A DNA stretch of 60,215 nt, counting the filler, from Basidiobolus ranarum (lineage: Eukaryota): NCBI GenBank assembly GCA_040143965.1. It is 7 parts of 7 records of this genome, joined end to end, with 100 filler letters (N's around TTAATTAATTAA, not from the genome) between each part and the next. Parts side by side here need not be neighbours in the genome. Positions count along the whole stretch, not along the records: positions 8,640 to 17,172 come from JASJQH010000958.1; 6 more parts are not named here. One strand, 5' to 3'. Positions 8,540 through 51,731 of the stretch are shown piece by piece. Position numbers and translations under genes: made by a program. The notes under the pieces were generated by a model. It had not been told where the DNA came from, searched no databases, and worked only from the letters and a program-made list of their open reading frames with translations. Numbering within the stretch: position 1 is the stretch's first letter; each line of letters opens with the position of its first letter.

Positions 8540-8639
8540 NNNNNNNNNNNNNNNNNNNNNNNNNNNNNNNNNNNNNNNNNNNNTTAATTAATTAANNNNN
8601 NNNNNNNNNNNNNNNNNNNNNNNNNNNNNNNNNNNNNNN
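8540..8639. other. Artificial contig linker
   Basis: 100 nt: N run, TTAATTAATTAA (stops in all six frames), N run. Confidence 0.97.
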
Positions 8640-9698
8640 GTGACAAGCATAGTAAAAGCATATGTTACTACTCTTGAAACGTTTCATATGACTGCATCTA
8701 TAGCTGAAGGAGATCAAGTCTAGAGAGATTATTGAAGGAGCTTTCCATTACCTGTATCAAATGATAATGTAGTATAAAACAGAATTATCGTAAAGTACTA
8801 ACAATTGACCAATTTACAGCATGCAAAGTGCCAAATGATTAATCACAATGGAAGCAAATTCTGAAACGATCAAGAAATCATTGACAAAACAGACTGATTG
8901 AAATATTCAGGGATTATGTTACCAATGTATATTGATATTATTCTCATCTTTTAAAGGCCTTCTACTTCTATCGAATCAATATTGACAACTCTTGAATGAG
9001 ACAGGGCTATTCTTGAGACATAGCTGTATAGATAGAACTACTATCAAACCGAAATTTCTTTCCAAGACACTTGTATCATCACATGGTGAGAAATTGAGAG
9101 ATGCAAATGATATTCTCGATGGTGAGGTTACGAATATTTGGCATACACTAAAGGCTTGACAATACTTGGAAAAAGTTGATGTATTTCACTCGATGTTTTA
9201 TTGAATTCAAACCAACTATAGTTAGTTGCGGTGAAAATAATCTCTTAAAATAATTTCTTCTGTGCCAAGAAATTTGGGGAGGTTTCGTCCAAGATATTTC
9301 TATTCATTCTGGTATCTCTGTGCTACATCAAAGTTCAATTCAAGCTATTCTAACCTTGTCATATGAATACAATATTTCAACGAGTTGGCTTTACCTGCAA
9401 TAATTTGGGCATATGATGGGCACATACTTCGCTGAACTATACCTCTCAGCCTGTATTTTCTAACAATATTATGGTCAAGTCTCTAAGTAATATTACAACA
9501 TTACCATTTAATCAACACCCTACTTGAAATTCCACATCTGCCAGTCGTAACTTGATCATTGAGTACATTCTGGATAAAGCCTATTCAAGCTCAAAGTCCT
9601 ATCTTATATAGAAGCTGTCTGTATCAAGGTGCAAACTATAATTTCTTTTTTCCATATATATTGCTCTAAACACAAAGTTGTTACTTACTGGATTGACT

Positions 9699-10259
9699 TT
9701 ACCTTCGCCATGGCTGGGCGGTATTTCTTTTCGAGATGCGCAAGTTATCAAGTGCTGAATTGAAGTTCAAGTCTGCAAGTGCTGAATTGCAAGAACTTCG
9801 CAAGGAATTAATCTGCAATAAAGCTTCATCCAGCTTTGTCAATGAACTAGTTTCAATATTAGTGGCATCAAACCGGCTTAAGCCCAAAGTAGCGACATTA
9901 ATATTCGCATTAGTGCTTATAGCTTGATCTTCAGTCTCGTCACGGAAGCTCGGCGAGGCATGATTGAAAATTTGGATGGTATATACGTTAGTGTGGGTGA
10001 AAATGCGATCAATTTTAACCAAACGCTGATCAATTTCTTCTTGTATTGCTTGTAATCCTGCTGGAGAGCAATTGTCATTACGGGCCTGAACCACCAATTC
10101 ATGTATTGTTTGAATGTTGTCAGCAACATGTTGTAGTGCACGTTCTGCAGTTTTAGCTAGGAGAATTCTGTCTTCATCTACCCACCACGTCATCGGACCA
10201 ATTTGAGCCTCAAAAGCAGCTACATAGGCAGTGGTTAGCGAGGCCCATGAACAAGACAT
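9699..10259 (-). CDS. Flagellin-derived protein (D1 domain helices only; no D0, no D2/D3), probable bacterial HGT
   Basis: [55 protein letters not shown] aligns without gaps to FliC [82 protein letters not shown] matches NPLQKIDAALAQVDALRS..RFNSAITNL. The alignments are by eye. Confidence 0.85.
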   Translation of the reverse strand: [186 protein letters not shown]

Positions 10260-10650
10260 AGTTTATCAGATTCAGTGTGTTCAGAATAATAGCTGATAAC
10301 ATTTGACTTTATAGAAGTTAGAAGTGAACCAGGTAAGTCCAGGTTTTAAAAATAGCTCCGGAATGGTTTCCGCAGTGGAGACTTTTTCCCACCATTTGAG
10401 CTGTGGTATCTAAGGGTGATCTAGAGATAGCTGAGTTTTTTATTTGCCGTAATATTCTCATCCTCATATTGGTCAAGTTCGAAAATATTCCTGGTCACAT
10501 GGTTACTGATAAATTTACTTTTCTCTTTTGCATTGTGTTGGTTAAAGTTTACAAATTAGTGGTATTACTCAAAATTAATATGGTAATTTGTTTACTCTTA
10601 TTCCAGGGAATAAGTATGCTTAAATGGTTATTTCAAGAGTTAACATTACG

Positions 10651-12018
10651 CTAAACTCTAAGGGAATTTGTTGTGATAGCAGCGGTTTCTAAGCTCAAGT
10701 CGCTAGCCTCAGTAATGGTATGTGGAAACTTTGCACGAGCATTTTCTACATGATGATAGGCAGATTCTCCTAGTTCGGAAAGGTCCAGTCCAAGTCTTTC
10801 ACTTTCGACATCAGCACGAAGGCTAAGTCCTGGTATTCTATCCATGATACATAAAATCAAATACGTGACGATAAAGGTCCATGCGAAGCCCGCTGAGCTT
10901 CCAGCGAGTTGGTAAGTAATCTGCATGAAATTTCCATTGATCCATCCTCCGGAAATAGTAGATCCATCTAAAGCAGCTATACGTTGTTCAGCAAATATAC
11001 CTGTCAGAAGGTCTCCAAGAAAACCGCCAACTGCATGTACAGCAAACACATCTAAAGCATCATCAAAGTCCAATAAATGGCTCAAATGACGAGCATAATT
11101 ACACCCGAATCCAGCAACTACGCCAAATAGCAGTGCAGGGGCTGGCCCCACATAACCTGATCCAGGTGTGATAGCAACTAATCCAGAAACCGCCCCGGAG
11201 CAAAAGGCAAGCGCAGAGAATTTATGTCCAGTACGGAAATAATCAATCAATACCCAAGTCAGTGCACCTGAAGCAGCAGAGATGTTGGTTACTACGATAG
11301 CCATAACGGCTCTTAGAGAGCCAGACAAAGCAGAACCACCATTGAAACCGAACCAACCAAACCAAAGAAATGCGGTTCCCAATACAACATTGGACATATT
11401 GTGGGCCTTAAACTCTTCCGTGCCATGGCCTTCCCTTTTTCCCACTTTAATTGCATAGGCTAAAGCAGCAACCCCTGATGAGATATGAACCGGTGTGCCA
11501 CCAGCAAAATCAAGACTTCCTAATTTCATGGCCCAACCATCAGGAGACCAAGTCCAATATGCCAATGGATCATACACGAGAGTTGCCCAAATAAAGATAA
11601 ATATAATTGTAGGGAAGATACGTGCACGTTCAGCTGAAGCGCCGATTGCTAATGCGGGAGCAATCGAAGCGAACATAGATTGATAAATCATGAAGGCAAT
11701 ATCAGGAATCTTCGGACTACCTACACTAGGGTCTCCTAATAGGTTGCGTAAAAATGCGTGGTCTAGATTTCCTATAAACCAGCTGCCACTAGAAGAAAAA
11801 CAAAGAGAATAGCCCCAGATAAACCATTGAACTAGTACAACGGCAACTGATAAACAACATAAGATTATAAGAGAAAGAGCATTCTTTGAACGAGCCATTC
11901 CACTGTAGAAATAGCCGACACCTGGTATCATCAAAAAGACTAGACTAGTTGACACTAGGACCCAAGCAATATCCCCGGAAGAATATAGAGAAGCGGATGC
12001 AGGAGCTGATGTACTCAT
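10651..12018 (-). CDS. Ammonium transporter (Amt/Mep family)
   Basis: Intronless 455-aa ORF with DFAGGTPVHISSG, FLWFGWFGFNGGS, GLVAITPGSG and DDALDVFAVHAVGG motifs. Confidence 0.97.
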   Translation of the reverse strand: MSTSAPASASLYSSGDIAWVLVSTSLVFLMIPGVGYFYSGMARSKNALSLIILCCLSVAVVLVQWFIWGYSLCFSSSGSWFIGNLDHAFLRNLLGDPSVGSPKIPDIAFMIYQSMFASIAPALAIGASAERARIFPTIIFIFIWATLVYDPLAYWTWSPDGWAMKLGSLDFAGGTPVHISSGVAALAYAIKVGKREGHGTEEFKAHNMSNVVLGTAFLWFGWFGFNGGSALSGSLRAVMAIVVTNISAASGALTWVLIDYFRTGHKFSALAFCSGAVSGLVAITPGSGYVGPAPALLFGVVAGFGCNYARHLSHLLDFDDALDVFAVHAVGGFLGDLLTGIFAEQRIAALDGSTISGGWINGNFMQITYQLAGSSAGFAWTFIVTYLILCIMDRIPGLSLRADVESERLGLDLSELGESAYHHVENARAKFPHTITEASDLSLETAAITTNSLRV

Positions 12019-12136
12019 TGAAAGTTAGTTGATATTATGTTGCTAATGACTTTCCTTTGGACTTATAAACAAGTCTTGGTTTTCTTTGATACAATAGATA
12101 GGCAAATACTCCAACCAGTTAGGGCCAATAATGTTC

Positions 12137-12251
12137 GATAAGTTTATCTTCTTTCCGAAAATCAAGGGGCGCTCTAACAGCCGAATATACTATCGGCAAA
12201 TTGACTGTTTCTGAATATTCGTAAGTGTGCTATTCCATACCCTTTCTTATC
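12137..12251. promoter_or_regulatory. GATA (nitrogen regulation) sites upstream of the Amt gene
   Basis: Inverted pair GATAAGTTTATC at 12137 and CTTATC at 12246, 120-230 bp upstream of the ATG. Confidence 0.45.
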
Positions 12252-13060
12252 TTGAAATGCATATCTAACTATAATACAAGCTTTTAAAGAGCTGATCACT
12301 TATTTAAACTTTTTGCTCTACAGCTGGGAACTACATGATCGATGCGGAACCTCATCCGAGCTATTCCGAGATATCAACATCCTCTAAACTAAATAACTAA
12401 TTCAACAGAATACAGCCGGTCCTACGATATTTCAGCATCACCTGATTTATTTCATCTTCCAATGATGTTAACCAATGTTGCAAAGTTTTGATATGTTTCA
12501 AGCCGATGTTTTATTACATGCCAAAGAAGTTTAAGGCATTCATAAATATTGCATGTAATAAGGTAACCAAGCTTAAACAAGCGCGCTGCACTTCATTAAA
12601 TACCGTGATACAGCCAAGTGATGATGTAAATGTGAAAAAAAATGGCAAGAATCACCAATTAGTAATACAAGAGTCACAACACCAACACGATCCGATACAA
12701 CTCTAGTTTTTTGGCATATTTATAATATTAAAGCGGCTTGATGAGGTGGTTTAAAAACGTCCACTTGAGATATATTTAACAACAATCTGGACTTCCAATA
12801 AATAGAATTCATTCATCATCAACAGTAACAGAATATACCACTCAGCCATCCAAAGCCAATCCTAAATGCTCGATCTGTTTAGTTGGCTCTAGTGTATTTT
12901 AGATGATGACTTATAAACACACGTTTCATGGCCTCTACTCAAAGTATATCTAATAGTTTCACAAAGCTGAAAATAGAGGCTGAACATGAAATATTTAAGT
13001 ACATGTGAAGTATAAAAGGGCAATGAAATCACTGATCAAAGAAAAACTCTTTTTTGCACG

Positions 13061-14224
13061 ATGAAGTGGCCGACCCTTTGCTCCTTCCTGATATTTGGCT
13101 GTCAAGCGATATCAGGCGCCCATGGCTTGGTTGACCCGCTGAAGCCTACCTCCAATATAGACACCATGACTTTTGGACCTGCCCTAGAAGTAGTACACGA
13201 ATTTCACCAACAAATGCCAACAGGAGTGGCGGTAAGTACCAAAGGTCGTGTATTTGTCAGTTACCCAAGATGGACGAACGATGTGAGATACTCTGTCGCT
13301 GAGATCATTAATGGGAAAGAAATCCCCTACCCATCTTTATCCATGCATCCAGAAACATCGGAAATTCAATCGGCCAACGTCACTCACAAGTCGTTCAAAA
13401 ACTTCATTGTGAGTGCTCAGACGATCGAGTTGGACGGCCAGGACAGGCTTTGGATTGTCGACACTGGGAGTGTATTCCGAGGAAAGACGGTTAAAGGAGG
13501 AAGCAAATTAATCTGCTTTGATCTTCGAACAAACAAAGTGGTGAAAAGCATCATATTCAGTGATCCGGTGATTCATGATATTTCCTATATTAACGATGCA
13601 AGATTCGATTTGTCTCGCGGTTATGCTTACATCACTGATTCAAGTTCCAGACCTGGCCTAATCATAGTTAATTTGAAAACTATGAAAGCGTGGAGAAAGT
13701 TGAATGAACACCCTTTCACCTTGGCTACCGATAAATTTGTCCCTATTGTAGAGGGGGTTCCTATCCAACCAATTACTAACGGGGTATATGGACATATGGA
13801 CGTTGGATCCGATGGAATCTCACTGAATGCCGATGGAACCCGACTTTTTTGGTGTCCACTGTCTTCACGCTTACTCTTCAGCGTTGACACCAAACTATTG
13901 ACCGATCCCAATCTTCAAGATACAGATCTGGAAAAATCCGTGACACAGCATGGAGATAAAGGCGGCGGTGCTGATGGTTTGGAGATCGACTCGAAAGATC
14001 GGCTTTATATGACAAACTATGAACACAACTCAATCAATAGATTTTATGCAGATACTGGTAGGATCGAACCTTTTGTTCGCGATCCTAGAAATATTTGGCC
14101 GGACACGATGCACGTTACCGATGGCTATTTGTATTGGATTGCCAATCAAATCAACCGAGAGAGCGGTATCAGGCCTTTCTACATGTTCAGAGTGCCAATA
14201 GATGCTAAAAGAGTGCTTCTTTAG
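13061..14224 (+). CDS. Secreted Yellow/major royal jelly protein-family beta-propeller, bacterial type
   Basis: Signal peptide plus MPTGVAVSTKGRVFVSYPRW, DGQDRLWIVDTG, YINDARFD, AYITDSS, GSDGISL, ADGLEID and WPDT motifs. Intronless, with TATAAAAG at ~13011. Confidence 0.9.
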   Translation: MKWPTLCSFLIFGCQAISGAHGLVDPLKPTSNIDTMTFGPALEVVHEFHQQMPTGVAVSTKGRVFVSYPRWTNDVRYSVAEIINGKEIPYPSLSMHPETSEIQSANVTHKSFKNFIVSAQTIELDGQDRLWIVDTGSVFRGKTVKGGSKLICFDLRTNKVVKSIIFSDPVIHDISYINDARFDLSRGYAYITDSSSRPGLIIVNLKTMKAWRKLNEHPFTLATDKFVPIVEGVPIQPITNGVYGHMDVGSDGISLNADGTRLFWCPLSSRLLFSVDTKLLTDPNLQDTDLEKSVTQHGDKGGGADGLEIDSKDRLYMTNYEHNSINRFYADTGRIEPFVRDPRNIWPDTMHVTDGYLYWIANQINRESGIRPFYMFRVPIDAKRVLL

Positions 14225-15727
14225 CACTGATGGCTTTTCCAGTATGCGTTTCTTATAAATAAAGTATATAACTTTGCTTATTGCCTACATCATCAGCTTA
14301 ATATCGTTATAGTGAACGCATTACTAATCGCTGTAAATAACAAGCCCACTTGTGTGAGTATTGTACAGTTATCCATATAGTCAATATATCCCGTTCTACC
14401 TGTGTAATATTCGCTTCATAGAAGCCCAACTTAAATAAAAACCTTTCTAACGTTTCCTCAAGTTGAGATTATTAAGACAGTTGGTCAAGCAAAGGGCACA
14501 TTTTACTAACATCAAATCCTATAGAAAATGTAGATCTAAGATCTAGAACAGTCGGAGACATATACTAAATAGGCATATTAAATATATGCTAGCCGATGTG
14601 TTAGTATGCTCAAAATATACAATGTTCTTTAAGAGTGTTCGTGAATAGCTCAGGAATATGGCCAATTAATGTATAAATCACCCATCCGTTATGCATGACC
14701 CACTAACCCCATACCTAGCATACATATATCTAACACAGCCAAGAGCAGTAAGAATACACACATTACAGTCCAGATGCCACTGATCCTCTGCCAGGTAACA
14801 GATCCAGATCAATGCTTCATTGTCAAACGAGTAAGCAACAAGTACGCCATAACTATGTATAGGATTCCGGAATGATAATAGAAAGCAAATATTAAATTCA
14901 CGGACTGACAGGAAGGAGCCATCATCTTTGGCAAAACAAGCGCTGTGAATGAAATTTAAACTTTCCCTTACTTGCCGCTAGTTCAATCACAAAAGCAGTT
15001 GAGACAAGGAACTAGATTACTTTATCTTATTGAGACAATGCTATATGTATTGGAATTGGAATAAGGCGATTCTATCGATTAGTGGGATATGTGCTACCCT
15101 CGGAAATCCACAGAAGAATCGACTAATCTTGTACCACTACATCGTGTACTAAACATTCTCCACTCACTTTCATTGGAATTTTACTTTTTAACCCTAACCC
15201 TAATCCATTGTACGGCAGTGGTGAAGATATCGGTTTCCCCATCCCCATCACCCTTTGCCTTACATAAACCGGAATGTATTTACATCTCGTTTCTGTTGTT
15301 GTGAAACCACCTCTCCCAATGAAATAGCTGATTTGAGGCTGAAAATATTGGTAGAATACTAAGCCTACATCGTAGTAGATCTTGCAGCTCAATTCTCCTT
15401 TATTTTGCTGTTGGGCTGTTGCGTTGCAAGTACTCCTCTACTTGGTTAACCTTTCTCATTCCATGTAAGGAAACTTCCAAGTTAGGCCACAGTAGAATGG
15501 GAATATCTGCCAATATAGGACTATTCAACATGTACTTATAAAATAACCGATATTGAGATCAGACTATGTATTTGTGGATCAGATATGGATCAGAGGTGAA
15601 TCAAACCCTACGCTTTGACACATTTGGTCACCTTGCACCCTCCAGCATGATATAAAGGTCCCGCCTCCTCCTCTCCACTCTGTTAATCATTTTCTTCACA
15701 ATAACTCTGCTAGATTTCCCTACACGT

Positions 15728-16972
15728 ATGGATCCCTATTATTATCGAACTGAGATACACCCAGAAGGGCTATCTGAGCACACCACCCCTTCATCACATT
15801 ATCTCACCAACTCACGAACTCTACCTCAGGTCTTTCTAGCAAGTAAGCGTGCCTTTTCTTTGATCTCTAAAGCAAAGTGCTAATGTATTTTGTTGATAGA
15901 TTCCAGAGTCTCGCCTGAGTTTCAAGGTAGATCTAATAGTAATGAAGTAAAAAGTGGATCCACAACATCATCTAGATATGAGCCATACCCAAAGCATTCC
16001 TCCAACTCCTATCCATCATTGGTGGCGACTGAAAGTCCTCAGAAGGTAGAGGTGAAAATCAACGAACCATCTTTCTATCGCGATTATTGCAATAAGCGAC
16101 ATGACTATCAATCACCTGAAATAGACTCTCAACTACATTCTGCGATACAATCTATATTGACCGAATTTGAGTCAAAAAAAACCTTCACTACTACTGATAC
16201 TTCATCTACAGCCAAAAGGAAAAGAGCCAGCAGTGAGCAATTAAGGATTCTCAAGCAGGTCTTTGAATACACTTTCTTTCCATCCACTGAGCTTAGAAAT
16301 GAACTAGCCAGAGTGCTTGAAATGACCCCTCGTGCTGTTCAAGTCTGGTTCCAGAATAGACGACAATCCTGGAAATCCTCCAAGGGAAAGGGACCCAATG
16401 GGAAAGAAAGTCATTCTCCATGCTCGAGTCCTCTGAAAGGTCTCTCCCCTGCGAGATTCGACTCCCCCGCACTATCCCCACCAATTTCAAATGAGGCACA
16501 CAGCACCGGCTACATCTCCATGAAATCAACTGTAGTACAAGTACCAATGGACAGATTCGGTGGGCCTACACTAGATAGTACTTCTGTTTCTAGAGTCTCA
16601 GGTTCTCAGTATTCACCCCCCAATAACATAGATTTCAAGGCTAGTCAACGCGAACCTACTGTTGAGTCTCTAGCCCCTTTTGGTATGCTTAACTCGGGAA
16701 GCCATCAACAAGTCTCGGAAACAACTCGGATACCGTATGGTCATAGTGGTAAATTGCCATCATTATTGGAAATGGGGATTGATTCACGGAGCAACACATT
16801 GAAACCTTTACCTTATAACCATAATCAAAGCCATCGGATTCATCATTCGGCTATTCCCGAAAAACGGAATTCCAATTTTTCTGAACAAGGGAATCACTAT
16901 ATGCCATACACCTCCCCTATGCCATACACCTCCCCTATTCCCACCCATTTTCCGCTCACCAAAAATCATTGA
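15728..16972 (+). CDS. Homeodomain transcription factor (Yox1/Yhp1-like); intron 15843-15899
   Basis: KRKRASSEQLRILKQVFEYTFFPSTELRNELARVLEMTPRAVQVWFQNRRQ. An in-phase GTAAGC...CTAAT...TAG intron and a TATAAA at ~15651 are present. Confidence 0.9.
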
Positions 16973-17172
16973 AAGCTATGACATTGTATGTTAGGCGAAT
17001 CTAATCGATATTCCTTAATTATGTTTTGTATGTAATATAGTCTCAACATGTATACTACTACTTTGACTATCTGTTTCGTTGACTACTAGAAAATCTCAAT
17101 AATACTTAGACCTCATTTGAACAGAAACCCCGTATATGCGTGTCCATTAACGTATCCATTAGTGTTTCCATT

Positions 17173-17272
17173 NNNNNNNNNNNNNNNNNNNNNNNNNNNN
17201 NNNNNNNNNNNNNNNNTTAATTAATTAANNNNNNNNNNNNNNNNNNNNNNNNNNNNNNNNNNNNNNNNNNNN
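17173..17272. other. Artificial contig linker
   Basis: Same 100-nt N/TTAATTAATTAA spacer. Confidence 0.97.
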
Positions 17273-20200
17273 TTTCCATCATTTTCAAGACAGTTTCGAC
17301 ATACTCGTACTTCTCCTCTAGTGGAACTTCCATAGGTTGACGCATTTTAGCTGAGAATTGTAAAGCTTCACGAACAGTCAAATTGGGATTATGAACATCC
17401 ATTTGTTCAACATATCCAGTGATACGTTCAAAATCTATATGCAAAGCGTTTCCGTTCAAGAAGATATCTCCTTCTACAACTCCAATGGTTTTTCTCTTTG
17501 CGAGCACGTCAAGTAATGTGGTCTTACCAGCACCAGAAGAGCCCATAAGGGCGGTCATCTGTCCTGGCTTGATCCAACCTTCACAGTTGTTCAGAAGTTG
17601 TAACTTGCCACCTTGGAAGGGAACAGTGTAATTCACTCTATCCCAGGTAAATATACCAGCTTCAGCAGCGAAGTTGTCACCCATGTTGTCATATGCAGCC
17701 TGAGCCTCTTGGACTCGCTGTAATTCTTCTTCATCAGAATGTCCCGGGGCTTTTCCGGCTTTGTAAACCTTCTTCACGAAGCCACCAGTTACCCAGTTAA
17801 TCTTCTCCATGGCAAGCATATTGCAAGCTACAAAGAATAACCAAAAGAGTAGCACAGCGATAATGTCGAGGCTCATTTGTGAAGTCAAATATCCATAAGC
17901 AGACTCAAGGTAGGCATCTCCTGTGACAAATAGTTCACCTGGTTTAGCGCCAGCAAGGACACATACTTGATGAGCGGCATCAGTGTAACCTGGTCCACTA
18001 GGTGCCAAACCGGGGCCAACACAAGGAAACTTGAGTCCACGCATTTCATTGGTGAACAAGGCTTTAAAAGCATAGGCATATGGATCAATCCAATAAATCC
18101 AATATAACTGTGGAGATGAATGAAATTCTGTGTTATTCATTATCTAGAATCAATGTAAGCCAATGAAATACGTACCCAAGGATGCATCTTATTATATGGA
18201 ATGGAGAAACCACAGTATGTAATCAATGTAATCAGGACAACACCAGTGAGCTGAAATGCAACATAAATCGAAGGACTGCAATTACCGAGTAATCTATCAT
18301 TATAATAAGGCAAATATGAAGAGCGTTAGTTCAATGTAATTCAAATGTGATGTATGGAAAGAGCTTCCTTACCTGAAAAGATCCGTTGTAGCTAAGGTCG
18401 TCAGAACGTTGGTAAATAGGAAAATGAAGAACTTTCCAGCATCTCTATCCAGACCAAACATGAAGTATGTAATAATAGCATACATCAGACACTGTACAAC
18501 AACGATAGGTATATCTGTAACTACACGGGCAATATGAAATGCGGATGGATGATACATGGCGTAAGACTTGTGTTTTTGTAAGGTCATACGACCTGTTAGG
18601 ACATTAGGTAATTCGGCTTGAGACAGGAAGGCATTGAATAGAAGAGAACTTAGAAGTGCACCACCTCTTTGGAAGGCACCAGTAGAATTTAGACCCATTA
18701 AGTAGAAAACGGAACCGTAGACAAAGCCTTGGATGAGGACGGAGAGATAACGTTCATATAATGCATGTTTGTCTCCCCATAAGATTTGGAATTGACGTGT
18801 GGTAAGAGCAACAACTTGTTCATAAAAATTGGCAGAGTAGACACTGCTGTTGGGAACACCTTTCTGCTTGATTTCTTTAACATATTCTTTAAATTCAGCA
18901 GCGGGTTGTTCACTTTCTATCTTGGCCTCATAGTCGGCTATGTTCTGAAGAAGAGCCTTATAATCTTGAGATTCTTGGAAATATCTTTCGAATTCTTCAG
19001 GGCTCTCTGGCACTCTACCTTCGAATCCTTTAGCAATAATACGTTCATTTGGATTCGTGATACCAGTCAGGAAATCAGGAATACTCTTTCTTGGTTCACA
19101 GGTGTATCCCATCTCCATGAAATAATCCTTTGCCCGATCTTTTGGCCCGAAAAAGATACAACGCCCTAGATAGAGGAGCATAACTTTGTCGTAAAGATTA
19201 TAGATACTATCGGAAGCCTGGTATAATGTGGATATCGTGGTTTTGTTGAGCGCATCGCACTGAATACGAAGAGATTTGTTATAATCTAAAGCACTTGCTG
19301 AATCGAGACCTCTGGTTGGACAATCCCAAGTTGCGATCGCACTACGAGCAGTCATAGCTTCGGAGATGGTCATACGCTTTCTTTCACCACCAGAAAGTCC
19401 TCTTACCCAGGCGTTACCAACAAGCTGTTTGGTGAAAATGAATCCTGTTAGAAAATGCCGATTCCTGTTTTACATGTATGATAGTACTCACCGTATTCTC
19501 TTGCTTCTTTAAGCCAAAGATTTTCAAAAGAGTATTCATGAAATCTTCCTGGAAATCTTTACGACTAATACCAGGTAAACGACGAGCGGGAGTTTTCATT
19601 TTTAATGCAAAGCCCAAAGTCTCCTTGACAGTCAGTTCTGGGTAATGTGCATCTTCTTCCATACAATAAATCGCTTCACCAAGATATTTACCAAAATTTT
19701 CTGCGGAAATACCACCAAATTTAACATCACCAATGATATTAAGGAATCCTTGTCTAGAGTTTGCGAGAACACGTAATAAACTCGAACAACCAGAACCTGG
19801 TCGGCCTAACACCAATAACATCTCCCCTTCTGGGCAATAACCGGTAACGTTGTGAATGATGTCGAATTTAGTACCTTTCCTCCCCTCTTTGCACCTATTG
19901 TTCCAATAAAGTTAAATATGGCATCATTTAAAATAGATCGGAGAGTGTACTTACCATCCTAAGGGGTTGAGCAATTTACCAATAGCTTTAAAAGGACTGA
20001 GAAGTGTCAATATACTGGATGCATCACTACCTTCCCCGACAATGGTAAGGTTTTTAAAGGTCACACCCATGTGATGTCTACGGATGCCATTCTGATCAGC
20101 AACACGAATGCCAGATTCCAAATAATCTTGGAAATTGAATTCCTCTTCTTGTTGGGGACCCTTTTCAGGATCGTTATGATTTGTCGATTGTCTTGATTGT

Positions 20201-25800: not shown

Positions 25801-25900
25801 NNNNNNNNNNNNNNNNNNNNNNNNNNNNNNNNNNNNNNNNNNNNTTAATTAATTAANNNNNNNNNNNNNNNNNNNNNNNNNNNNNNNNNNNNNNNNNNNN
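25801..25900. other. Artificial contig linker
   Basis: Same 100-nt spacer. Confidence 0.97.
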
Positions 25901-34422: not shown

Positions 34423-34522
34423 NNNNNNNNNNNNNNNNNNNNNNNNNNNNNNNNNNNNNNNNNNNNTTAATTAATTAANNNNNNNNNNNNNNNNNNNNNN
34501 NNNNNNNNNNNNNNNNNNNNNN
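34423..34522. other. Artificial contig linker
   Basis: Same 100-nt spacer. Confidence 0.97.
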
Positions 34523-43032: not shown

Positions 43033-43132
43033 NNNNNNNNNNNNNNNNNNNNNNNNNNNNNNNNNNNNNNNNNNNNTTAATTAATTAANNNNNNNNNNNN
43101 NNNNNNNNNNNNNNNNNNNNNNNNNNNNNNNN
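43033..43132. other. Artificial contig linker
   Basis: Same 100-nt spacer. Confidence 0.97.
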
Positions 43133-43225: not shown

Positions 43226-43298
43226 GGACTGGTAGCTCAGTGGGTAGAGCACCTTGCTAGAGTGAAGGAGGTCCCAGGTTCAAATCCTGGCCAGACCA
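43226..43298 (+). tRNA. tRNA-like sequence or pseudogene (anticodon AGA, short variable loop)
   Basis: GGACTGG-TA-GCTC..GAGC-A-CCTTG-CTAGAGT-GAAGG-AGGTC-CCAGG-TTCAAAT-CCTGG-CCAGACC-A folds into a 73-nt cloverleaf with A and B boxes and two stem mismatches. Confidence 0.7.
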
Positions 43299-51631: not shown

Positions 51632-51731
51632 NNNNNNNNNNNNNNNNNNNNNNNNNNNNNNNNNNNNNNNNNNNNTTAATTAATTAANNNNNNNNNNNNN
51701 NNNNNNNNNNNNNNNNNNNNNNNNNNNNNNN
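51632..51731. other. Artificial contig linker
   Basis: Same 100-nt spacer. Confidence 0.97.

Follow-up and report, generated by a model that had tools for sequence, protein, structure and literature searches.

The 60,215-nt stretch of Basidiobolus ranarum DNA analysed here (the window) carries, on the contig JASJQH010000958.1, a 186-codon open reading frame (ORF) that is homologous to the D1 domain of bacterial flagellin. What a fungus, which is without bacterial flagella, would do with a filament protein is not obvious. In flagellin, D0 is needed for flagellar export and polymerisation, and its C-terminal part (CD0) serves in FliS binding and holds the NAIP inflammasome epitope. The closest described proteins are short D0-D1 flagellins of the FliC type from Gamma- and Betaproteobacteria: those of Billgrantia pellis (L006, 285 aa), Castellaniella hirudinis (L042, 279 aa) and Morganella morganii (L016), and the Halomonas FliC proteins P0002 and P0003. 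The ORF is collinear with these over the N-terminal D1 helices (ND1), the connector and the C-terminal D1 helix (CD1), with 40% identity to the B. pellis protein over aa 30-174 (E = 2e-17) and an alignment to the M. morganii protein over aa 30-179. It shares their D1 helical fold and keeps their hydrophobic core. Unlike them, it has no N-terminal D0 (ND0), no flg22 core and no CD0; many conserved columns are changed, its branch in the tree is far longer than the median and it contains both Cys and Trp. Also unlike bacterial flagellins, it lies beside a fungal gene for a Mep ammonium transporter and not beside flagellar genes.

Flagellins that lack D0 are known as laboratory fragments, such as SF-deltaD0 (PMC5578693) and F41 (PDB 1io1). 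They are reported to be soluble and not to activate TLR5, for which D0 is required (PMC5578693). The ORF resembles them in being D1 without D0, and it matches chain 1io1_A at 7.7e-11. In these fragments, however, the TLR5 hot spot is native, and F41 also retains D2/D3, whereas in the ORF the hot-spot arginine has given way to threonine and the CD1 motif is rewritten; it is, besides, a natural eukaryotic ORF. A threonine at this position is also reported for the TLR5-evading flagellins of Campylobacter jejuni and Helicobacter pylori (PMC5247705). Those proteins are complete and filament-forming, and have Asp at the E114 position, while the ORF keeps Glu (E75) and is without D0; it has no special sequence kinship with them, its nearest rows being Gamma- and Betaproteobacteria. 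A comparator of another kind is a remnant annotated as hypothetical in an Arsenophonus metagenome-assembled genome (MAG; P0120/P0271, 91/107 aa). Like the ORF it is a short, diverged piece of ND1 on a long branch (4.24); the two are 48% identical over aa 29-90, and both lack the two arginines of LQRxREL. It is bacterial, consists of ND1 only and groups with Sodalis/Brenneria and not with the ORF; it serves to illustrate flagellin decay in a host-restricted bacterium and is not a relative.

The genus Basidiobolus inhabits amphibian and reptile guts (PMC7466969; PMC10964425). Between 2 and 5% of Basidiobolus genes are reported as candidates for a bacterial origin by horizontal gene transfer (HGT), mostly intronless and with codon use not different from that of host genes (Tabima et al. 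2020, PMC7466969). The ORF is like these candidates in its bacterial best matches, its fungal neighbours on the scaffold, its lack of an intron and its host-like composition and codons. What is unusual is the cargo: the published emphasis is on enzymes and, in the text of PMC7466969, on secondary-metabolite genes, whereas this is a structural filament protein with no enzymatic use. The string 'flagell' occurs nowhere in that text (the candidate lists are in Tables S4/S5, not covered) and was likewise absent from the papers on HGT in Basidiobolus and early-diverging fungi that were word-searched. A full-text search, supplementary gene lists not covered, found no paper that links fungi or Basidiobolus to a transferred flagellin gene.

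A flagellin D1 homologue beside a fungal transporter gene

The sequence-only reading had aligned the ORF by eye to both D1 segments of flagellin. The same pairings are returned by HMMER alignments to Salmonella-type flagellin chains, which set iqeeidqrlvkidri against iqaeitqrlneidrv, tlgl against tlgl and fnsaldnl against fnsaitnl. The Pfam profile Flagellin_N matches with an E-value of 5.7e-11 and 43.1 bits, above its gathering cut-off of 26.6, and places aa 31-100 on profile positions 67-136 of 139. Flagellin_C (PF00700) was not among the two Pfam families listed at E <= 10, and CD1 gives weak stretches in phmmer (i-Evalue 2-14). The NCBIfam FliC/FljB family matches at 6.7e-18, although none of the 18 NCBIfam families listed reaches its whole-protein cut-off (best NF005294, 65.4 bits vs 387). 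Against PDB sequences the best match is the flagellin 9n59_A (3.1e-12), with a second, weak stretch on CD1, and all 60 matches listed are flagellins or flagellin homologues.

For structure prediction and column-wise comparison we aligned the ORF in MAFFT with 68 of the 149 non-self phmmer matches listed (all of the short ones and a selection of the long), giving 69 rows. AlphaFold with this alignment yields a model (predicted local distance difference test, pLDDT, 82.1; predicted TM-score, pTM, 0.74) with helices at 24-61, 66-89 and 137-185. The top Foldseek matches of this model are flagellin filament cores, led by 8cxm (TMq 0.71, E = 3e-6); TMq over the flagellin cores is 0.60-0.71 at probability 1.00, and 16 matches have E <= 0.001. 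As an independent check, an alignment-free model from the ESM Atlas (pTM 0.67) meets flagellin clusters at TM 0.69-0.73 over aa 24-186. The ORF is a true flagellin homologue with the D1 helical-bundle fold.

The ORF is intact, with an ATG start, as the sequence-only reading had it; in-frame stops stand two and three codons 5' of the ATG. Its parts differ in how well they are conserved (coordinates in Table 1). The first 29 residues, with W5, W25, W26 and C3, have a pLDDT of 52-65 and a mean identity of 0.23 to the other alignment rows. Residues 30-100 are modelled at pLDDT 89-97, and their identity to the 68 flagellins averages 0.41, with a maximum of 0.51. In the connector the conserved FNG motif has become VYT (F92V, N93Y, G94T), and aa 101-120 have a pLDDT of 61-65. 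Within the CD1 helix, two near-identical copies encoding NSALADL and NSALDNL occupy the site of the conserved LGAxQNR-F motif (G158N, N164L); they could be a slippage duplication or chance. The C-terminus reads ...NTAQPWRR.

The claimed loss of both D0 termini, the flg22 epitope and D2/D3 is borne out by the 69-row alignment. There, 16 N-terminal family columns (ND0) have no counterpart in the ORF, a further 21 columns, AIERLSSGLRINSAKDDAAGQ, the flg22 core, are gapped, and the last 42 C-terminal columns (CD0) are absent. Several phmmer matches are instead collinear in this region, with query aa 10-16 on flagellin 47-54, which puts residue 1 near flagellin residue 39; the first 13 residues of the ORF then take the place of the second half of flg22 with only scattered identities. 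ND0 and the flg22 epitope are gone under either alignment. Since only about 36 residues lie between the ND1 and CD1 helices, there is no D2/D3.

The gene next to the ORF is fungal. The Mep2-type transporter matches fungal Mep2 structures at 1e-135 and bacterial AmtB at 1e-77 to 1e-87. Full-length alignment with a B. ranarum protein gives 89% identity; two B. meristosporus proteins reach 87% and 78%, and the next matches, from Mucoromycota, about 67%. In the ESM Atlas the transporter meets mixed eukaryote labels, which are uninformative. By these identities the fungus is of a gut-dwelling genus, the case in which the earlier reading had held the fragment to be relevant. A homeodomain ORF on the same contig likewise speaks for a fungal setting. 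A flagellin fragment lying beside Mep in a fungal contig means bacterium-to-fungus transfer; together the flagellin matches and the Mep neighbour support a bacterial D1 fragment that resides in a fungal contig.

Bacterial relatives and the probable donor

Searched exhaustively with phmmer, 1.84 billion representatives yielded 565 matches at E <= 0.001, with the ORF itself at 2.9e-116 and the next protein at 2.8e-13 with 40% identity. The top matches are Halomonas FliC, Lamprobacter, Streptomyces and a 107-aa Arsenophonus piece, and of the top matches the nine traced to a record are all bacterial or unnamed metagenome proteins. The collection carries no taxonomy, and the statement that there is no fungal homologue rests on the absence of a close match. 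A word-indexed search of 5.8 billion clustered proteins at near and longer lengths returned, respectively, only the ORF itself (83 candidates) and none of 829. Scanning metagenomes with the ORF protein found five related stretches among 269, all ordinary flagellins with 38-42% identity over aa 29-101, and no orthologue. These searches thus yielded no orthologue in the protein collections, and tblastn with flagellins (below) no second flagellin-like sequence in the window.

With one genome per prokaryote species, at least 296 relatives were found among 575 pattern matches. The best 80 loci are all bacterial and almost all from Gamma- and Betaproteobacteria: Halomonadaceae, Alcanivorax, Enterobacterales (Morganella, Providencia, Hafnia, Salmonella) and Burkholderiales. 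Short flagellins of 278-285 aa (L006, L042, L072) are the best collinear matches. Identity of the ORF to any flagellin is at best 37% over 182 columns, and in ND1 it is at most 51% to any aligned flagellin.

We placed the ORF among bacterial flagellins in a quick maximum-likelihood tree of 88 rows and 184 columns. It falls in an open polytomy with 52 rows of Enterobacterales, Oceanospirillales and Burkholderiales (SH-aLRT 82). Its terminal branch measures 4.98, about 19 times the median of 0.26, and carries a long-branch warning against a Streptomyces row. The phylogeny therefore sets the ORF among Gamma- and Betaproteobacteria without singling out a donor: to judge from these rows, the donor was probably a gamma- or betaproteobacterium, a nearer placement not being given by the tree.

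The contig and the rest of the window

The window consists of seven contigs of 8,484-8,539 bp, descending in size and linked by N44-TTAATTAATTAA-N44 spacers, so that claims of linkage are valid only inside one contig. This narrows the earlier statement on genes that share the ORF's contig: it holds within 8640-17172, where an Amt/Mep, an MRJP-family and a homeodomain ORF are present, and does not extend to the rest of the window. The ORF had been called AT-rich, which is a relative matter: its GC content of 42.4% is like that of the neighbouring genes (41-46%) and above the 33.5% of its flanks. The mean gene GC reported for B. meristosporus is 48.65% (PMC7466969), above that of the window's coding DNA, which points to a different Basidiobolus lineage as the probable source. 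The TATAAAG that had been placed about 50 bp upstream is present on the minus strand (Table 1).

Table 1. Positions of the ORF, its parts and other features, counted along the window.
Feature	Position	Strand	Remarks
Spacers between contigs	8540-8639, 17173-17272, 25801-25900, 34423-34522, 43033-43132, 51632-51731
Contig bearing the flagellin-derived ORF	8640-17172		second of seven
ORF-poor DNA from the ORF to the contig end	8640-9698		1,059 bp, 33.6% GC
Flagellin-derived ORF	9699-10259	-	ATG start, 186 aa, TAA stop at 9699-9701
aa 137-186, CD1 helix	9702-9851	-	stops where CD0 would start; modelled helix 137-185
Two 22-nt copies in CD1	9741-9789	-	27-nt period, 19/22 identical, in frame; encode NSALADL and NSALDNL
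aa 101-136, short connector	9852-9959	-	replaces D1 beta-hairpin/spoke and D2/D3
aa 30-100, ND1 helices	9960-10172	-	best conserved part; Pfam Flagellin_N match aa 31-100
Codon of T51 (TLR5 hot-spot arginine position)	10107-10109	-	from ungapped HMMER alignments
aa 1-29, poorly conserved N-terminus	10173-10259	-	collinear with flagellin residues ~39-67 (end of flg22 region and helix ND1a)
Spacer between Mep stop and ORF ATG	10260-10650		391 bp, 33.5% GC; both genes on minus strand
TATAAAG	10313-10307	-	54 nt before the ATG at 10259
Mep2-type ammonium transporter (Amt/Mep)	10651-12018	-	Pfam 8.2e-118
MRJP-family ORF	13061-14224	+	same contig as the flagellin-derived ORF
Two adjacent ORFs with PDR_CDR + ABC_tran and ABC2_membrane	17217-19373	-	next contig

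Both sides of the ORF are devoid of further flagellin. Searching with 38 flagellins in tblastn gave no similarity in the spacer to Mep, and throughout the window the 36 high-scoring segment pairs outside the ORF all have E >= 0.26. The ORF-poor DNA towards the contig end holds neither a bacterial gene nor a D0 remnant. Bacterial promoter-like sites are not in excess in the flanks (3 found vs 4.8 expected), a terminator scan gave a like result, and the minus strand upstream of the ORF has no sigma-70-like site. Five small ORFs around or antisense to it show no Pfam family above cut-off (one reaches E = 0.034, below cut-off), and a look for repeats or a mobile-element signature in the flanks found only short repeats, probably chance.

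Some other features of the window may be recorded here. The best match of the MRJP-family ORF is the uncharacterised protein PDB 2qe8 (7.4e-26), which we take to be cyanobacterial, with insect MRJP and dopachrome-conversion enzymes reaching only 1e-5 to 9e-5. Lying about 1 kb past Mep, this ORF may, by its matches, be a second bacterial-type gene. The adjacent pair on the next contig probably belongs to a single fungal gene for a PDR-type ABC transporter, which an intron divides and the contig end truncates. A single tRNA (43226-43298) is the only Rfam match in the window.

Maintained gene or relic, and what the product might do

The history we favour begins with a piece of a proteobacterial flagellin gene, which would have passed into a Basidiobolus-like fungal genome. 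The donor gene would have been of the FliC type and probably encoded a short flagellin, about 270-285 aa, with D0 and D1 only; the piece would correspond roughly to its residues 39-228. It now stands as a free-standing ORF 391 bp downstream of the Mep gene, and selection since the transfer may have kept it open and foldable. The predicted product is soluble, has a mass of about 21 kDa and is organised around the D1 helical bundle with three long helices. It would not be exported by the flagellar system and would not polymerise, and it would be without the FLS2 epitope, the C-terminal NAIP epitope and the TLR5 arginine. Because neither a signal peptide nor a membrane segment is seen, the most likely role would be that of an intracellular helical binding or scaffold module unrelated to motility. 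We put the chances that this is a maintained, expressed gene for a non-polymerising helical-bundle protein at about even.

Its main rival is a neutral relic, a fragment of bacterial DNA downstream of Mep that is not, or no longer, under selection, its frame open by luck or because the gene arrived recently from a donor, such as a host-restricted symbiont, that was AT-rich and whose flagellin had diverged beforehand. This we consider somewhat unlikely. Synonymous sites against the bacterial homologues are saturated for dN/dS. The earlier claim that the fragment is repurposed and not decaying has indirect, moderate support from the open frame, the core and the codons. We simulated neutral decay from five starting sequences, 300 runs each, with HKY, a kappa of 2 and the intergenic base frequencies of the contig, by substitution only and with indels ignored. 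At 50% amino acid identity, 0-7 of the 300 runs from a given start still had the 186-codon frame open, and at 40% 0-2 of 300, which for a relic makes an open frame improbable (p about 0.00-0.02 per start at <=50% identity, indels ignored), though not strictly impossible. The length differences between the ORF and the flagellin family in the 69-row alignment are all in frame, and homology stops at the ORF borders even though no part of flagellin is more conserved than D0; both speak against a relic. At the core columns (hydrophobic in >=90% of flagellins) the ORF is hydrophobic in 33 of 35, whereas of 48 conserved polar or Gly columns only 21 are identical in it. Neutral runs matched to this polar divergence kept 0.78 +/- 0.06-0.07 of the hydrophobic positions, and 0.94 was reached in 0-1 of 400. 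Synonymous codons fit the host table at -1.161 per codon, within the range of host genes (-1.04 to -1.21). The log-likelihood ratio (LLR) for the host table over flagellin genes is 42.6 (95% interval 20.6-64.8) for Providencia/Xenorhabdus, 40.5 for other Enterobacterales and 57.8 for Halomonadaceae, so that codon choice is unlike that of the nearest sampled donor groups and, if the donor was of a sampled kind, argues for long residence. The TATAAAG 5' of the ATG is a further point for maintenance.

Several observations weigh against a maintained gene or count in favour of a relic. Within the protein collections searched, the ORF stands as a singleton, though these include proteins of B. ranarum and B. 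meristosporus; this counts against long residence, which predicts orthologues unless they were lost or unannotated. Its terminal branch is similar to that of the Arsenophonus remnant. It has lost 25 of the 54 columns conserved at >=80%, FNG and LGAxQNR among them, and has gained three Cys and four Trp, residues absent altogether from 58 and 45 of the 68 flagellins, respectively. In the codon test the host table is separable neither from plain intergenic composition (LLR 0.4) nor from one AT-rich gammaproteobacterial MAG (LLR 9.0, interval -4.3 to 23.6). Providencia flagellin genes have the same GC at each codon position, for which reason base composition was rejected as proof of amelioration; had an AT-rich donor whose flagellin was divergent to begin with passed the gene on recently, the open frame would then be explained without selection. 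In the core test, divergent but complete bacterial flagellins score alike (29/34 to 31/33 hydrophobic, 18-22/47 polar), and so does the 107-aa Arsenophonus remnant (18/20 hydrophobic, 20/35 polar). Single-sequence AlphaFold gives a poor model (pLDDT 58.6), and the alignment-based model leans on the flagellin alignment. The ORF was, moreover, noticed for being open, an ascertainment bias. Finally, a Basidiobolus genome is reported with hundreds of HGT candidates (PMC7466969), and therefore a few open relics are to be expected.

The sequence-only reading had proposed an immune decoy or non-activating receptor ligand. As a secreted decoy, the D1 protein without D0 would reach the gut lumen or host tissue, bind TLR5 without activating it and dampen the response. 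D0-less flagellin is reported to bind TLR5 without signalling, and a D0-less fusion lowered activation by the wild type (PMC5578693); the fungus, too, belongs to a gut-dwelling genus (PMC10964425). In a register fixed by ungapped HMMER alignments (query 29 on chain residue 68), three hot-spot neighbours are kept, L55, I72 and E75 standing at L94 (L93/94), I111 and E114. The hot-spot arginine itself (Salmonella R90, B. subtilis R89) is T51. This arginine inserts into the LRR9 cavity of TLR5, and R89A is reported to lower binding about 10-fold and activity about 49-fold; Campylobacter and Helicobacter flagellins with Thr here evade TLR5 (PMC5247705). In addition, the CD1 motif LGAxQNR is replaced, and simple hydropathy gives no evident signal peptide (N-terminal maximum KD(9) 1.5, no K/R in the first 10 residues), which agrees with the earlier reading, and no membrane segment. 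With the lack of an orthologue in the collections searched, these points make a secreted decoy very improbable. The suggestion of a binder of bacterial flagellar components has no known basis without D0. In a variant of this idea, the gut fungus would have domesticated the D1 core of a neighbouring bacterium's flagellin as an immune-silent module, stripped of D0, flg22, the NAIP epitope and the TLR5 arginine, and would employ it towards gut bacteria or its host; it might, for instance, bind a protein that recognises flagellin and leave it untriggered. This strikes us as quite improbable.

Two further explanations concern the boundaries of the gene and the assembly. The stop codon TAA sits within AG|GTAAAG, and GTAAGT follows 11 nt further on (9680-9703, minus strand); both resemble 5' splice sites of fungi, and the true C-terminus might therefore differ from the annotated one; the genes of the genus are reported to have a median of two introns (PMC7466969). 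The ORF would then be one exon of a larger spliced fungal gene with further, non-flagellin parts, possibly a targeting signal. We rate this as quite improbable: the stops upstream of the ATG, the small ORFs without a Pfam family above cut-off and the lack of other flagellin pieces in the window argue against it, as does the report that 61% of the HGT candidates in the genus are intronless (PMC7466969). The description of the ORF as intronless holds in the sense that homology is collinear without frameshift. That the piece is not physically in the fungal genome, owing to a chimeric assembly or to bacterial contamination, is extremely improbable, even though the contigs, at about 8.5 kb, reflect a fragmented assembly and a fungal gene is present on one side of the ORF only. 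Contamination would bring densely packed bacterial genes and a flagellin of full length, D0 included, whereas here both ends are missing, the flanks are 33.5% GC, ORF-poor and no richer than expected in bacterial promoter-like sites, ND1 resembles no flagellin closely and codon use is host-like.

The significance of the ORF, as a maintained gene or as a relic, hinges on orthologues and expression. It raises the question whether a eukaryote that shares the gut with flagellated bacteria and a TLR5-bearing host can co-opt a structural, immunogenic bacterial module. Should orthologues under purifying selection be present in other Basidiobolus genomes, it would be a clean natural example of domestication at the level of a domain, and TLR5 biology would have an interesting flagellin variant from nature, 'D0-less, arginine-less'. 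As a lone relic, it would be a small and instructive record of the kinds of DNA that enter Basidiobolus genomes. Were the domesticated D1 core true, the ORF would be the first case of a eukaryote putting a flagellin-derived gene to work.

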